This document shows positions 31,988 through 52,331 of a stretch of 64,000 nt of DNA, in pieces (within the stretch, counting starts at the first letter, position 1; each line of letters starts with the position of its first letter). Under the pieces are notes generated by a model. The model did not search any database, was not told the origin of the DNA, and saw only the letters and a list, made by a program, of their open reading frames with translations. This DNA comes from a virus (lineage: Duplodnaviria; Caudoviricetes). The stretch covers positions 32,001 through 96,000 of the IMG/VR virus record IMGVR_UViG_2806311071_000002; one strand, 5' to 3'. Position numbers and translations under genes: made by a program.

Positions 31988-32233
31988 TTATTTAATCCAA
32001 TGAGCTAGTGGAACGCTCAGCACCTGATATTGTTCAACTAAGTAAGCATGTTTCCTTTCCCAGGTATTTTTCTTCCATGCTTTTTGATTTGTGAATGACG
32101 AATCTATTGGCTTTGGATATTCTCCGTCCACCCAGCCATCTTCAATATGATTCAGCTTGGCTTCGTTGACTTTATCATCGTTTTTGTACCATACAGTTAT
32201 CATTTTGGCTGCCATATGTCCTCCCTCTCCCAT
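31988..32233 (-). CDS. Small hypothetical protein (probable start MAAK)
   Basis: GGAGG RBS. Confidence 0.5.
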   Translation of the reverse strand: MGEGGHMAAKMITVWYKNDDKVNEAKLNHIEDGWVDGEYPKPIDSSFTNQKAWKKNTWERKHAYLVEQYQVLSVPLAHWIK

Positions 32234-42568: not shown

Positions 42569-42670
42569 AGCAACTAAAGGGGAAATTAATCCCCTTTAGA
42601 GATGTTATTTGCGTGTACGTTTGCGTTGTCTCTTTGGTCGGAGACGCTTGCGTATACGCTTTATTTTTTT
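42569..42670 (+). ncRNA. SR6-like antisense antitoxin RNA
   Basis: Promoter TTTACA-16-(TG)TATAAT at 42535-42562; hairpin CTAAAGGGG/CCCCTTTAG; terminator GCGTGTACG/CGTATACGC plus T-run, overlapping the yonT 3' end. Confidence 0.7.
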
Positions 42671-45907: not shown

Positions 45908-48427
45908 TTGAAAAGAAAAAAAGATGGATTGTCTAAGCAAGTTCACATATACAGCGTAGACACATCAGCATTTTATAATGACAAAGAAAATTCATTACAT
46001 AATAAGATTTTGAAGTCTTATAGATACAGAGATTATCTTAAAACATTAGACAATGTAAATAATAAACATAAGAAATACATATCACATAGAATTACATACC
46101 TTAAAGAGTGCCTCTATTCTGCATTCGAAGAACATAATGACATAAGAACACTTCGAACTGACAGTTTAAGGGATAATAAAGTAATTTCTTTATTTGATTC
46201 AGTGTTGACCCGTACATTAGGGATTAAAGAAAATACCCTTTCAGAGGAAATCATGGTTGTACAAACTTATCATTTTGAAGTATTGAAAGACATTATTGAC
46301 AAAGGATTTTTACATAACAATGAGAAATACGTTTATTTCACAAGCAGTGCCGGTCAAATTCGCACAAAGAAGTCATGTTTCATAAAAAAAAGCACTTACG
46401 ATAAGTATCAGGATGCTTTGACCTGTGGCTTGAGAATTGAAAAGATTAATTCCCTTGGTGGGAGCAGCATTAACAAATGGAATAGCTATATGGCCTTATC
46501 TAACAGCGCCAGTAGCCCTTGGGAGATCGATATTGATAAAGCAATTGTTGTTAACGACCTAGAAACGGATGTATCAAGCCTTGTTGACTATATTGACCGA
46601 GACACCTACGAAATCACACGAAAAACAATGAACATTCCCATTGAGCATACAGATGGCTGCGGAATGATACTCCCCACTCTAAGTCGTAAAAGCTTCATGG
46701 TAAGGCTCCCGTGGGTAAAGGGTTTATTAGTCCCTTTTGATTTTCGTAAATTTGCTGAGGAAAACAAAGCTTTTAAAGTAACTGATATATACGGCAAGGA
46801 ATGGGACGTAGTGAAAGATGATGTTCAAATTATCTTCACTAAAAGCCAGTTTAAAATGTGGAAGTATTATTCATCGTGGGAAGAATATCAAGATAATTAT
46901 AAAAAATATGGATGCTTAGGGGCAAAACTCAACGAAGAAGACCCTTCTGTTGAAGGTAAGCTCACTTATCAAATGCTCCAGACACTTACAGATATCTCCG
47001 ATGAAGAATTAATTCAAATGAGCTCAAAGACTGTAAAAGAGATTACCACATTGGGAACTGACAAAGAAACCATGTTAAGAGTTCTTGGAGCTACGGAGAA
47101 AAAGAAACATCGGACAACTCTTCAGGACGCTTTACTTCTATATCCAGAACTTCTTAACGATGATCACACGAAAGAAATTATTAAAAATAAAAAGAAAAGC
47201 ATGATTAAAGATGCCAAATCAGGAAAATTGCTTGTTGATGGTGCTCGTTATACATACTTATGCCCTGATCTATATGCTTTCTGCGAAAAATTATTTCTGA
47301 ATATCCAGAATCCAAAAGGAATGCTTTCAGGAAGTGATGTCCATTGTTCTTTATATGATGAAGGGTATATTGACATCCTCCGCTCCCCTCACCTATTCAG
47401 AGAGCATGGTGTTAGGTGGAACAAAAAAGATGAGAAATATGAAAAGTGGTTCATTACCCCAGGTGTTTACACAAGCATTCATGATCCGATATCTAAGTTG
47501 CTGCAGTTTGATAATGACGGGGATAAGGCCTTAATTATTTCTGATGAGTTAATCGTCAATATTGCCAAGCGTAATATGGAGAACATCGTTCCTTTGTATT
47601 ATGAAATGTCAGTAGCCCAGAAACAAGAGATTAATAGCAGGAACATCTATGAAGCACTAACCCTTGCTTACGGAATCAATATCGGGGAGTACAGTAACAA
47701 CATCACTAAGATATGGAACAGTGACAATATAAACCTGGACGTGATCAAATGGTTATGCATGGAAAATAACTTTACTATTGATTTTGCAAAAACCTTGTTC
47801 ATGCCTACCCGTCCTGATCATGTTGATGAAAAAATCAAAGATTACATAAAAAATAAAGTCCCCCACTTCTTCATCAACGCAAAGGATAAAGAAGAACATA
47901 GCGTTGAGTTTATTAATGAAAGCACAGTAAATAAGTTAGACTGCATTATCCCTTCTGACCGAATTAATTTCGCAGCTGTTGCAGGAAAGTTCGATTATCG
48001 CTTCCTACTCAAGAACAAGGATATTAAATTGGACGATGCAATTATTCGTGAATATAAACGATTAGACCAGAACAAGAAATGGCTCATGAATGATGAGGAC
48101 ATTAAGCCTGGACAAAAACTTTATGTTTATAAGGTTATCAAAGACAGATTGTTGAAAATCCATAATGACGAGCAATATGTTGCTGATGTTTTAGCAAAGT
48201 ACCTATATAAAAAGAAAAGCAAATTTAAATCAACATTATGGGAGTGCTTTGGTGAGATTCTATTAAATAACTTAGCAATAAACTTAAAGAACAGGAAGGT
48301 ATGTTTAAGCTGCTTGAAACCTATAAGCAATAAAGGAAACAAGAAAAAATACTGTACAAAATGTTTAAATGAACGAGAAAAGATAAGAAAAAGAGAATGG
48401 AAGAGAAAACAACTGGTAGCGAAATAG
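45908..48427 (+). CDS. yonO: Single-subunit two-barrel RNA polymerase
   Basis: RSPH, catalytic FDNDGD, TDGCG, C-terminal CxxC..CxxC; 839 aa. Confidence 0.93.
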
Positions 48428-48679: not shown

Positions 48680-48955
48680 ATGAACAAAACAGAATTTGTT
48701 GGAGAAGTTGCAGAAAAATTAGGAGTTACTAAGAAAGAAGCTGCACCTAAAGTGGAAGCAGTATTTAATGTCATCATTGAAGCACTAACAAAAGGTGAAT
48801 CAATCAAGATTCCAGGAGTTGGAACGTTTGAAGTTCGTGAACGTGCAGCTCGTAAAGGGAGAAATCCGCAATCGGGTGAGGAAATTGATATTCCAGCTAC
48901 AAAGGCACCTGCCTTCAAGGCTGCTAAAGCACTAAAAGACGCAGTGAAAGCTTAA
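48680..48955 (+). CDS. yonN: HU-like DNA-binding protein
   Basis: MNKTE...GTFEVRERAARKGRNPQSGEEIDIPA. Confidence 0.95.
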   Translation: MNKTEFVGEVAEKLGVTKKEAAPKVEAVFNVIIEALTKGESIKIPGVGTFEVRERAARKGRNPQSGEEIDIPATKAPAFKAAKALKDAVKA

Positions 48956-48981
48956 TGTAGCATCTTCCTCCCTTTTCCCTA

Positions 48982-49127
48982 GAATGCGGTGGCGAAAAAG
49001 GTAAACGCGTAGATCGAGGTGGTATGACTAACCTTCGGGAATCTCGAGGCCAACCTTCAAGAGAAGACTAATAGTTGGCGAATTGTCATCCATGAGAGGT
49101 GCAAATCCTCTCCCGCATTCATCTCCA
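48982..49127 (+). ncRNA. tRNA-like RNA with an ~85-nt insert replacing the anticodon and variable arms
   Basis: Acceptor GAATGCGG/CCGCATTC, D-arm GCG-AAAAAGGTAAA-CGC, T-arm GAGAGG-TGCAAAT-CCTCTC. Confidence 0.65.
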
Positions 49128-49139
49128 GGTTTATTAATT

Positions 49140-50301
49140 AGAGTTCTTTTATTGATGGCATGGGGGTGTCGTCAATAATAAGCTGATTACTGATATGTGG
49201 GATATCAGTTCTCGGCTAATATTCATTTGTTTGAGGACTTGGAATGCTGGAGCTTCGGACAAGTGGATATTAGCGGGGTATTGCCCCTTCGTGGATTAAG
49301 CTTTTTCTAAACATGTCTATTCTCACTTTCTAACGAACAAAAGCATTAAATTCGACTTTACAGCTACAACTGGTCATTGTGGTTAGTCGGATAATGGTCA
49401 TTTATGAGGGTTCGAGGTTAACTTGGATGTCTGTATCTTAAAGAGACAGGTAATTGGCTATTATCGGGCTAAACATGCCGATAAGACTTAGCGCATTAAT
49501 GCAACGACTGAATCCCATCAGGGTCTTATTATGGGTGGCATGTGACCTGAATATTAATTGCGGTGTATTGCTTCGGCTTGCACTTAGGTAAGGAAGATGC
49601 GTCTCCCTTCCCTTTAAATAATGCCCTTGTAAGCTTTGATGCTTATTATGCGGCCACATAAAAATTTTCCGGGTTAGCGAGTCTTCTATACTCGTAAAAT
49701 AAGTGAGATGGAGGTTTGGGCGCTTGATCACCGCCCCCATTTCACAGAAAAGGATTATTTTCGGTCTTACCTTTTCAACTTCACTTAGCAACACATTCGC
49801 TATTTATTCACTTCATCTCCTTCAATGTTCTGAATGGAGACTTACCTTTCCCAATGCACATACCTCCTTACACGGGTCAGAGAAAACTGTGCAAAATAAA
49901 TGACGAGCGTTTGAGACGCTTTGTTTCTCAATAAGGCGTGTAACCTGACAAGAGCATTAAAAATGCCATTGAGAAGGCTTATTAGGGTCTTCCCTTCTCA
50001 AATTTTTCCTTGGCTCTCAGACTCTAAGGGCTGAGCAGTTGGCAAGCAACATAAAAACTTGATACATTTTCCAGACTACGAGAGCCGGACGTTGGCAAGC
50101 AACATAAAAACTTGATACATAAGATGTAAAGGTAATAGGAACTTTTAACACATTCCAGAAAGCGTGTATTATTTGTTGTCATAGCTCATCTGCCAGGTGT
50201 AGAAGGAGCCAGCTGGATTTCAAACAGCGATAACCAGCCTTTTATGCTCATGTACCATGATGTACAAGGAGTTCCTGAAGACGTTATTATGGCGTCTTTT
50301 G
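49140..50301 (+). ncRNA. Dense cluster of structured non-coding RNA
   Basis: Successive G:U-containing hairpins; no credible ORF; terminator at 50278-50301. Confidence 0.55.
50038..50120 (+). repeat. Two exact 30-bp direct repeats with a 23-bp spacer
   Basis: GTTGGCAAGCAACATAAAAACTTGATACAT at 50038-50067 and 50091-50120. Confidence 0.95.
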
Positions 50302-50440
50302 TTATTTTCGACTTACAAAGATTTCGATCGATGAACCTGTAATCAGCGTATTCCCTGTCGATTTTGCGTACCTACGTGGGTTAATGAATAATATTTAAGG
50401 AAACGCTAATTTCGTATAATTTTCAAGGGAGGACGAAAAG

Positions 50441-50671
50441 ATGGACACAAACATTCGCGTTAAAGTTATGTATGATGACACGGTATATAATAAGTGGGGC
50501 GAGATTATTAATGAAACTTATGCCGGCGAGATTATCGATGCTATCCTTAACGAAGACACAGAAGAATATTTTGGAAAAGATCATGGAGGTCGCGAAGTAT
50601 TTGTCGCATCTCTCGACATGTACGGTAAGCTCGTACTAGAGCCTGGATTTAAATTAGTAGACGACAAATAA
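50441..50671 (+). CDS. Small acidic hypothetical protein
   Basis: GGAGG RBS, upstream TATAAT and its own terminator (50683-50715). Confidence 0.7.
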   Translation: MDTNIRVKVMYDDTVYNKWGEIINETYAGEIIDAILNEDTEEYFGKDHGGREVFVASLDMYGKLVLEPGFKLVDDK

Positions 50672-50919
50672 CGCAATCAGAAAGAGGCTTCCGCATCCTG
50701 TGGCGAGGTCTTTTTGTGCTTGCGTTTTACTTTAGCGATCATCCGGAATGTGCTTACGAGCCTTCCGGTACGCAAGTAATCAATAATCTCCTTCGGGCGT
50801 TTCCCCAACGCCTATCCGACTTATCTTTTCATCTCCTTTATATCCCCTTTTCGGACGTTACCGATGCTTCGGATCATCGGGCTTCCGAAGGAGCTTATTG
50901 TACGTAAATAAAACACATA

Positions 50920-51120
50920 TTGGAGGAATTAAATTTGGCTAAGAAAGTTCATACAGTAAATTTAAAAGGTAACTATACTTACATTGATGGAATTATTGAA
51001 GAAGAAACAAAAACAGACATCGAGCGTTATGATCTAAATTCAATCTTAAAATCATTTGATGGTCGGAAAGTGAAAATTTCTATTACCGAAGAAGACGAAC
51101 TTCCACAAATCAATGAGTAG
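50920..51120 (+). CDS. yonK: YonK-like protein
   Basis: AKKVHTVNLKG...KVKISITEEDELP. Confidence 0.7.
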   Translation: MEELNLAKKVHTVNLKGNYTYIDGIIEEETKTDIERYDLNSILKSFDGRKVKISITEEDELPQINE

Positions 51121-51131
51121 GTGGTGACTGA

Positions 51132-52331
51132 ATGACAGCTATTTTAGATCCTGTTTTGCATCGTGAAAAAGACGAATCATTTACTGATTATCATATTAGA
51201 CTTTTCAAAAACAAAGACACTTATCACATTGACACAAAAACAATTGCATCCCTTTTAAATAAGGATCAAGGAACCAACTATGATGAAAGCAAATGGCGTA
51301 AAGACTTTAAACAGTATGAACGCTGGCACGATTACTTCATCTCAAAGAATATGAACAAAGAAGTTCAACAAAAACATGAAGAAATTCGCATTGAAACCGA
51401 AAAACAAACAATCAAAGCACGAGATCAAAAAAGAGAATACCGCAAGTTCATTGCCAATCAAGCACGATTTGAAAAAATTAAAGATGATGTTGTTCAAGCT
51501 ATTGCATCTCTAGAGTCAAAAAGACCCCTTCGCTTCACCTTCCCATCACCTGCTATTACTGAAAAACATGGACTTGCTCTATTCAGTGATTGGCACTTCG
51601 GAATGGAAATTGACAACCGCATTAATAAATTCAATAAAGAAATCTTTAATGAGCGTGTAGAACATCTCACCAACAAAGTGATTGAGTATGGTAAGCAGAA
51701 TCACATTTCCACACTTCATGTAGCAAATCTCGGTGATTTAATCGGAGGCCTAATTCATGTGTCTACAAGAGTTCAGGCCAATGAAGATGCTGTAGAACAA
51801 ATTAAATATGTATCTGAAACGCTTGCTGAGGTGTTAGCTATGTTGGCTAGTGAGTTTCAAGAGGTTAAGTTCTATAACGTTGCAGGCAATCACGGTCGCC
51901 TCTCCCCTTCTAAGAATGATGTGGGGATCAAAGAAAACTTTGAATACCTCATTAATTGGTATCTTGAAGCCAGATTGAAGAATATAAAGAACATCTCAAT
52001 TGAACCTGAGCAAGACGGATTCATCCCCGCTAAAATCAACAATCAGGAAGTCGTGTTTGTGCACGGCCACTACGATCGTGTTGATCAGTGTGTAACACGA
52101 TTGCCCCAATTACTTGGTTACATCCCTTCTTACATATTCGGCGGTCATATTCATCACAATTATGAAAAAGAGTATGGCAGCACAACAGTTGTAGTAAATG
52201 GAGCGCTTGTCGGTGCGGATGATTATGCTATGCAAGGTCGGTTCGGAACAAAACCTTCTCAAAAATTTATGGTTTTTGATGATGCTGGTATTGAGGCTAC
52301 ATACATAATTCGCTTTAAAAATGAAAAGTAA
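51132..52331 (+). CDS. yonJ: Calcineurin-like metallophosphoesterase
   Basis: SDWH, GD, GNHG, HG, GHIH. Confidence 0.85.
   Translation: MTAILDPVLHREKDESFTDYHIRLFKNKDTYHIDTKTIASLLNKDQGTNYDESKWRKDFKQYERWHDYFISKNMNKEVQQKHEEIRIETEKQTIKARDQKREYRKFIANQARFEKIKDDVVQAIASLESKRPLRFTFPSPAITEKHGLALFSDWHFGMEIDNRINKFNKEIFNERVEHLTNKVIEYGKQNHISTLHVANLGDLIGGLIHVSTRVQANEDAVEQIKYVSETLAEVLAMLASEFQEVKFYNVAGNHGRLSPSKNDVGIKENFEYLINWYLEARLKNIKNISIEPEQDGFIPAKINNQEVVFVHGHYDRVDQCVTRLPQLLGYIPSYIFGGHIHHNYEKEYGSTTVVVNGALVGADDYAMQGRFGTKPSQKFMVFDDAGIEATYIIRFKNEK

Follow-up and report, generated by a model that had tools for sequence, protein, structure and literature searches.

Conserved RNA modules between HU and yonK in an SPbeta-type Bacillus phage: a candidate leader of the late operon

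Introduction

Among the described RNAs that come close to the locus presented here are the following two kinds. HK022 put and the EAR of the B. subtilis eps operon are RNAs conferring processive antitermination, and the 5' stabilisers of Bacillus messenger RNAs are 5'-terminal stem-loops, such as those of the aprE and ermC leaders and the SP82 phage stabiliser. Among single-chain relatives of the multi-subunit RNA polymerases, YonO is, to our knowledge, the only one characterised so far. The window analysed here is a 64,000-nucleotide (nt) stretch of DNA (positions 32,001 to 96,000 of IMG/VR record IMGVR_UViG_2806311071_000002), from an SPbeta-type Bacillus phage whose provirus record spans 122 kb. 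Downstream of its YonO gene, a non-coding tract extends from the HU stop codon to the start of yonK (48956-50934), with one orphan open reading frame (ORF) inside. This tract is a conserved, uncatalogued set of non-coding phage RNA structures on the + strand, which is also the strand of all window features given below. We lean, with modest confidence, towards reading it as the long cis-acting leader of the late operon of this phage, with a separate hairpin array ahead of it.

In SPbeta, the YonO-dependent start of the late operon was mapped at position 2225998 of strain 168 by 5'-triphosphate-enriched RNA sequencing and primer extension, and the YonO promoter was called unknown (Forrest 2017, PMC5467207). 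The locus is mentioned in that paper as 'an unannotated non-coding RNA'; the start site and this one phrase are given, without structure, extent, modules or function (PMC5467207). In the literature searched, no publication describing the structure or function of this RNA was found.

Comparative evidence for conserved RNA structure

About 45 SPbeta-like loci with a homologous tract were retrieved by BLAST and with the YonO protein; the gene order YonO, HU, leader, YonK, YonJ, established from ORFs and Pfam/PHROG matches, is also found in about 45 loci. The alignment comprises 42 distinct intergenic sequences, including a divergent B. pumilus-group clade (YonO about 70% identical). It supports pairing in the hairpin array, called block U, and in the modules of the leader, called A1, A2, A3, B and C. 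In block U, 95.3% of the alignment cells are paired over 36 pairs, with 11 compensatory pairs (51 cells), compared with at most 5 pairs and 11 cells when the partners are slid. Module A1 (34 sequences) has 46 pairs, 98.6% of cells paired and 13 compensatory pairs in 114 cells, for a slid maximum of 20 cells. For A3 (40 sequences), the corresponding values are 28 pairs, 98.2% and 15 compensatory pairs in 102 cells, with a slid maximum of 7 pairs and 17 cells. Module C, with 30 pairs and 99% of cells paired, shows 3 compensatory pairs in 20 cells (slid maximum, 1 pair and 3 cells) together with G-U changes. Additional compensatory stem swaps are seen in the A2 and B alignments; the sequences of A2 are close relatives, and 3 of its 37 predicted pairs are compensatory. 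As the aligned sequences are related, the shuffle values of the counting tool should not be read as probabilities; the slid-partner controls preserve this relatedness and yet remain far below the observed counts. Compensatory changes across about 40 phages thus bear out the expectation that the structure would be conserved among related phages.

The variable pairs often alternate between A-U or G-C and G-U. Since a G-U pair becomes an A-C mismatch on the opposite strand, such pairing works on the + strand only. Fold stability agrees with this polarity. For the stretch 49136-49310, the predicted fold has an energy of -68.7 kcal/mol (z = -7.4), a stability reached by 0 of 200 shuffles, and sliding windows over the same part reach z = -8.1 on the + strand versus -4.0 on the - strand. 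The 618 nt from 49393 to 50010 have a z of -4.7, and single 150-nt windows between 49400 and 50600 mostly score from about -1 to -3.

A preliminary description of positions 49140-50301, made without database searches, had proposed 'wall-to-wall' RNA structure over about 1.2 kb. Because most 150-nt windows score between -1 and -3, such continuous structure is unproven by energy alone, which is strong only for 49136-49310; the decisive evidence for folding is comparative. Every stem named at that time is found in the sequence. GTGAGATGG/CCATTTCAC and TTGAGAAGG/CCTTCTCAA are indeed conserved helices, whereas for TTATCGG/CCGATAA, also present, the alignment favours long-range partners for both arms. 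The proposals of a non-coding folded RNA at the head of the late region, and of its + strand orientation, are both upheld. The ORFs of the tract had been regarded as spurious, and none of them is intact across the homologs.

The start site of YonO transcription

The SPbeta start could be placed on the window in two steps. The primers of Forrest 2017 bracket positions 1659-1851 of the SPBc2 locus (L001), and the offset was fixed by a 4.2-Mb single-contig genome that is 100% identical to the SPBc2 tract at 2225610-2227296. The SPBc2 start is the bracketed A in TAGTCGGAT[A]AT, which aligns without gaps to position 49393 of the window; the surrounding sequence, from -23 to +50, is nearly identical between SPBc2 and the window. 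The SPbeta ortholog of the tract is therefore known to be transcribed, from a YonO-dependent start that maps to 49393. Public RNA data searched with an SPbeta ortholog (L084) gave 13 RNA runs in which it is present solely as contigs. Among the four runs checked, two of raw RNA contained 0 reads and a ribosome-profiling run contained 10; the fourth, a contig run, is uninformative on transcription because its contig spans 22 kb.

The A at 49393 lies within the motif AGTCGGATAAT (49385-49395), which occurs once in this phage genome. Of 43 SPbeta-like loci, 36 have GTCGGATAAT at the expected position. Distant YonO loci show no enrichment of the motif, 33 forward and 25 reverse occurrences corresponding to chance level. 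AGTCGGATAAT is a candidate core of the YonO late promoter. Direct repeats of 8 nt, TGGTCATT, flank this motif (49370-49404); in one relative (L105), precisely the sequence between the repeats is deleted, and the candidate promoter with it. Six other prophages have different deletions of the start region; late transcription may be defective in them.

Block U, ahead of the late transcript

Block U (49149-49288) lies 3' of the HU gene and 5' of the YonO start. It comprises four hairpins: H1 (49149-49178), H2 (49189-49209), H3 (49215-49274) and H4 (49275-49288). H2 to H4 are retained in B. pumilus-group phages with altered stem sequences. As block U sits 100-250 nt upstream of the start site, it is outside the YonO transcript. 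The hairpins listed first in the preliminary description (49149-49271), which had been assigned to the late RNA, thus belong to the 3' region of the HU gene instead. The covarying, G-U-containing stems of block U indicate a role as + strand RNA, the simplest assignment being the 3' untranslated region of the HU/yonN transcript.

The position of block U, untranscribed by YonO, is one of the features that could suggest DNA-level signals in place of RNA, such as a YonO promoter architecture, protein-binding sites or extruded hairpins. The start-site motif AGTCGGATAAT is invariant, and about 70 nt further on lies ATCGGGCT, to which the upstream half of the motif is complementary; both features would also fit signals of this kind. 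We nevertheless consider this explanation very unlikely for the tract, given that compensatory changes preserve pairing as the sequence changes, that the numerous G-U pairs would be A-C mismatches on the other strand, and that the fold is far more stable on the + strand.

Modules of the leader

From 49393 to yonK at 50935, the leader would be an RNA of about 1.54 kb ahead of the first late gene. It is a mosaic of separately conserved modules, A1, A2, A3, B and C, and not one giant RNA. The order of the modules is constant in about 40 phages, with cargo genes between them.

Module A1 (49393-49625) begins with an 8-bp 5'-terminal helix (49393-49400/49455-49462) whose first pair includes the +1 nucleotide. 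A long-range covarying helix (49474-49487/49523-49542) then encloses a variable hairpin and the hairpin 49508-49521. A loop-bulge pseudoknot between a CCCA loop and a UGGG bulge (49514-49517/49532-49535) is possible, with one compensatory pair. The end of A1, called A1b, consists of two hairpins (49562-49584 and 49586-49613). Module A2 (49626-49846), which contains the GTGAGATGG/CCATTTCAC helix, is restricted to B. subtilis-group phages and missing in the pumilus-group and myophage copies.

Four covarying helices build module A3 (49847-50009). Its first hairpin (49856-49892) has a loop, ACCUCCUUA (49862-49870), that hardly varies and has the same sequence as the anti-Shine-Dalgarno end of 16S ribosomal RNA; the variant ACCUUCUCA is found in B. 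pumilus-group phages. A junction helix (49900-49904/49965-49969) and a second hairpin (49912-49930) follow. A candidate pseudoknot, TTACAC/GTGTAA (49868-49873/49938-49943), is 99.6% paired, with one compensatory pair. The module ends with a 3' hairpin (49971-49999) and a U-run, up to 50009. Two further partners considered for the A3 loop, module C and the Shine-Dalgarno sequence of yonK, gained no support from covariation on inspection of the alignments.

The variable spacer that follows (50010-50175) has low alignment occupancy and identity, and is the site of cargo-gene insertion in relatives. It includes a 53-nt tandem duplication, with identical 30-mers at 50038-50067 and 50091-50120. The 30-mer is found in two relatives only, as a single copy, and has no stable fold (z = +1.2). 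The repeat thus looks like a recent tandem duplication; with two copies only, no stable fold and no adjacent toxin gene, a type III antitoxin-like array is not supported, such arrays normally having several conserved tandem repeats that form pseudoknots beside a toxin gene.

Module B (50176-50390) is made of three covarying hairpins and an intrinsic terminator, detected by a terminator scan at 50277-50299 plus a U-run. This is the terminator previously placed at 50278-50301, and it is conserved in subtilis-group phages. In SPBc2, the 3' end of module B (L001 2734-2799) matches the DUF3800-VIII RNA of Rfam (RF03075) at 47.5 bits, above the gathering score and without a nearby DUF3800 gene. A Bacillus genome has DNA homologous to this stretch immediately 3' of a DUF3800 gene (L159 611-1558). 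The corresponding stretch of the window, about 50340-50400, has no DUF3800-VIII match because of a 7-nt deletion. A further stable, terminator-like hairpin (50670-50726, z = -4.0) stands directly 3' of the orphan gene. By BLAST, it is common to the unrelated Bacillus siphophages 268TH007, phi18-2 and KLEB27-1.

Module C (50782-50899, z = -3.9) is a four-helix junction for which the single-sequence fold agrees with the consensus. Its 14-bp closing helix P1 (50782-50796/50885-50899) surrounds P2 (50797-50811), P3 (50815-50819/50851-50855), which closes a pyrimidine-rich loop of about 30 nt, and P4 (50861-50880). C is the most conserved part of the tract, 92-97% identical and present in 42 of 42 loci. 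It is better conserved than the protein genes on its flanks: the YonK proteins of this phage and SPbeta share no more than about 41% identity. The 3' end of C lies within 10-25 nt of the ribosome-binding site of yonK, at a distance of about 22 nt. The folded stretch initially delimited is thus real, but its right end was set too early, since structure goes on beyond 50301 to 50899.

This organisation bears on the earlier suggestion of one large RNA or a processed array, possibly of the GOLLD/ROOL type. A single ornate unit of about 1.2 kb would account for a long, continuous folded non-coding tract and for the module order conserved in SPbeta-like phages. It looks highly improbable to us, as each module can be lost, inserted or relocated without the others (the pumilus group lacks A2, and genes of 0.2-2.6 kb separate A3 from C), a terminator lies inside the tract, and no long-range helix between modules was recovered, the consensus helices closing within single modules. 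Nor is there any Rfam match to such an RNA. With Rfam 15 at gathering thresholds, the sole match in the whole window is SR6 at 42571; with E values up to 10, just three chance-level matches to microRNA or long non-coding RNA models appear between 48400 and 51000. The tRNA neighbourhood frequent for GOLLD and ROOL in phage genomes is not found either, ARAGORN detecting no tRNA gene in the 64-kb window. Membership of GOLLD/ROOL is thus not retained, and of the two options the array, as a mosaic of independently mobile modules, fits better than the single RNA. The abiF motif RNA (RCd22, RF03085) was also searched for, and no match was obtained in the window (E up to 10) or in the SPBc2 locus (E up to 0.1).

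A proposed cis-acting leader of the late operon

We infer three cis functions for the leader, namely 5' protection, terminator read-through and control at yonK. YonO would start at 49393 within AGTCGGATAAT, by orthology with SPbeta, and would transcribe the leader into yonK. The 8-bp helix at the transcript 5' end may protect it against 5'-dependent decay in Bacillus. The terminators of the leader (A3 3' hairpin, module B and post-orphan hairpin) would halt host RNA polymerase that arrives from the early genes, and YonO would read through them, a combination that would make the late genes dependent on YonO. Such read-through would be needed since a single late operon was reported in 2017. YonO indeed pauses little and has no flap domain, the element that mediates hairpin-dependent termination (PMC5467207). 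Terminators are found inside the leader in three lineages. Module C could finally be an element that resists processing or sets translation for yonK, the first late cistron, a role proposed because C is always fused to this gene and under the strongest constraint.

Several observations weigh against the leader reading, most of them from copies of the modules in other phages. An A3 covariance model (R1) and nhmmer revealed A1b+A3 in Bastillevirinae myophages, for example SIOphi and 000TH008, within a 1.5-kb gene-free gap before the portal genes. There, a conserved promoter-like, sigma-A-like site of its own (TTGACG-17-TATCTT) ends 2-3 nt before the A1b match, and the RNA is separated from the next gene by a second promoter-like site and a strong terminator (L175 3394-3422, in 000TH008). 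A3 alone is found in another prophage type (G008:C43), with small ORFs and a gene for an HNH endonuclease downstream, and is followed there by an element similar to the hairpin 50670-50726 of the window. A1b alone is found in the same genome (G008:C3), upstream of a DUF6847 gene; members of this gene family are inserted directly after A3 in two SPbeta-like loci. The modules are thus mobile and partly autonomous, and since they work without YonO and yonK, autonomous roles are favoured. Moreover, the start-site motif is deleted in 7 of the 43 related loci, and distant YonO phages have no such leader: R1, a second model for C (R2) and nhmmer gave 0 matches in about 95 distant YonO loci.

The motif GGGTTAGGG, G-rich and telomere-like, is repeated three or four times, about 50-60 nt apart, upstream of the RNA in 000TH008 (L175 2690-2870).

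Alternative readings: released or antiterminating RNAs

An array of autonomous small RNAs, released and acting in trans, is accordingly a possibility to be taken seriously, even if we hold it to be less probable than the cis-acting leader. Release of the modules, and above all of the A1b+A3 core of about 270 nt, would occur by termination or processing, co-transcription from the YonO promoter giving timing only. The released RNAs could serve as decoys for, or antidotes to, defence or toxin systems of the host, or could target host machinery in the late phase of infection. The mobility of the individual modules speaks for this reading, with A1b+A3 behind its own promoter in myophages and the isolated A3 and A1b copies just described, and a hairpin with a U-run ends A3 in most lineages. 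The 3' end of SPBc2 module B is an orphan DUF3800-VIII copy, the bacterial-genome copy being beside a DUF3800 gene, and Forrest 2017 mentioned a distinct non-coding RNA. These points have to be balanced with the strictly retained module order in SPbeta-like phages, the constant attachment of C to yonK and the lack of a U-run after the A3 copy of G008:C43.

The A1b+A3 core is common to SPbeta-type siphophages and Bastillevirinae myophages, and a third prophage type carries A3 alone. Tentatively, and with more doubt than for released RNAs in general, this core may represent a kind of autonomous phage RNA not described before, with the expression machinery of the host as its target. For example, it might make polymerase terminator-resistant or disturb ribosome-mRNA pairing.

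The first of these activities can be formulated as a processive antitermination of the put/EAR kind, by analogy: A1b-A3 would bind polymerase, confer resistance to the following terminators and allow late read-through. A succession of promoter, folded RNA, terminator(s) and structural genes is seen in SPbeta-like phages, 000TH008 and G008:C43, the layouts of loci L003, L001 and L175 (000TH008) being analogous to that of the window, and the RNA contains candidate pseudoknots and invariant single-stranded stretches. Such a mechanism is unlikely in our opinion, because binding of one RNA to polymerases as dissimilar as YonO and that of the host is not to be expected, YonO already resists pausing, the antitermination families of Rfam give no match, and distant YonO phages do without the RNA.

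Distribution, leader slot and cargo genes

R1 matches 6 of 91 Bacillaceae species genomes, just those with such prophages, and 0 of the 150 other Bacillales genomes sampled. In distant YonO phages (Paenibacillus, Brevibacillus, Metabacillus and others), the leader slot is occupied by a short gap or by a PIN-PhoH gene. The latter, a fusion of an RNase domain and an ATPase, lies between HU and yonK/yonJ in L005 (9137-10375), L008 (9235-10476), L010 (9183-10619) and others. The idea that the leader is a decayed PIN-PhoH pseudogene was discarded, as tblastn with six PIN-PhoH proteins gave chance matches only.

The leader is an insertion hotspot for accessory genes. In relatives, 0.2-2.6 kb of unrelated cargo genes are found between A3 and C, some of them on the opposite strand, and PADLOC gives no defence-system match for these genes. 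Examples are L004 11461-13889, L104 11421-12668 (- strand), L088 10983-11991 and L074 9938-11390; the types observed include a DUF6847 protein, a weak DUF6731 match with a membrane protein, and a 415-amino-acid gene on the opposite strand.

The insertion in the late leader of the window is the 76-amino-acid orphan gene with a good ribosome-binding site (50441-50671). It has no Pfam, PHROG or PADLOC match, is otherwise found in just 3 loci (prophages), and would be expressed together with the late genes. It is this inserted gene that had served as the right border 'yonK' of the preliminary description, an assignment that could not be kept: the Pfam YonK family (PF09642) matches 50935-51117 instead (E = 7e-10).

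Neighbouring genes and other features

On the left side of the tract, the YonO single-chain RNA polymerase gene (45908-48427) is followed by HU/YonN (48680-48955, Pfam Bac_DNA_binding). On the right side, the true yonK (50935-51120), the first late gene, has a TTG start and the ribosome-binding site GGAGGAA (50922-50928); the next gene, at 51132-52331, encodes a YonJ-type exonuclease. A small ORF at 50244-50342 was rejected as coding, since a covarying hairpin and the terminator overlap it and it is intact in 3 of 36 homologs. A pac site in the tract was likewise set aside, the published mapping placing pac between yonR and yonP.

A tRNA-shaped element (48982-49127) lies between the HU stop codon and block U, with an 8-bp acceptor-like stem, a T-arm loop UGCAAAU and a long branched insert replacing the anticodon arm. 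Neither ARAGORN nor the Rfam tRNA model calls it, and its fold has a z of -1.8. It is found in about 45% of the related loci, not in SPBc2. Further upstream, the SR6 antitoxin RNA of the yonT/SR6 type I toxin-antitoxin system (42571-42670; Rfam RF02892, 84 bits) is expected content for an SPbeta-type phage.

Implications and comparison with known RNAs

The RNA that YonO would make first is now defined with comparative support at the base-pair level, and AGTCGGATAAT is a testable YonO promoter candidate. Constructs can thus be designed to address how a minimal polymerase initiates, ignores terminators and hands over to translation. The modules are candidate new RNA families, and a core common to unrelated Bacillus phage families suggests a function of general use to phages. 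If A1b+A3 is autonomous, it would be a general late-phase device of Bacillus phages and not a passive leader.

Compared with described RNAs, the tract resembles GOLLD and ROOL in being a long, non-coding, complex-folded RNA of a Firmicute phage. It differs from them in its modular construction and its situation as an operon leader, with neither a sequence or structure match nor adjacent tRNA genes. The likeness to put and EAR is one of layout, with a promoter on the 5' side, intrinsic terminators on the 3' side and a long operon to follow, and extends to the candidate pseudoknots. The tract is far larger, has no sequence or model match to them, and its polymerase is the non-canonical YonO. The helix at +1 and the stable junction directly before the first cistron recall the 5' stabilisers of Bacillus. 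For these, one short element suffices, which leaves about 1 kb of further modules and the copies in other phages unexplained. As for DUF3800-VIII, the window copy is degraded and no DUF3800 gene is adjacent in the phage. The closest relationship is with the non-coding RNA of SPbeta, an orthologous locus with the same flanks (YonO, HU/YonN and YonK) and a leader identity of 77-94%, from which this phage differs by the 53-nt duplication, the inserted orphan gene and the degraded DUF3800-VIII motif, three features not seen in SPbeta. The existence of this RNA was noted in 2017; its module structure is characterised here.

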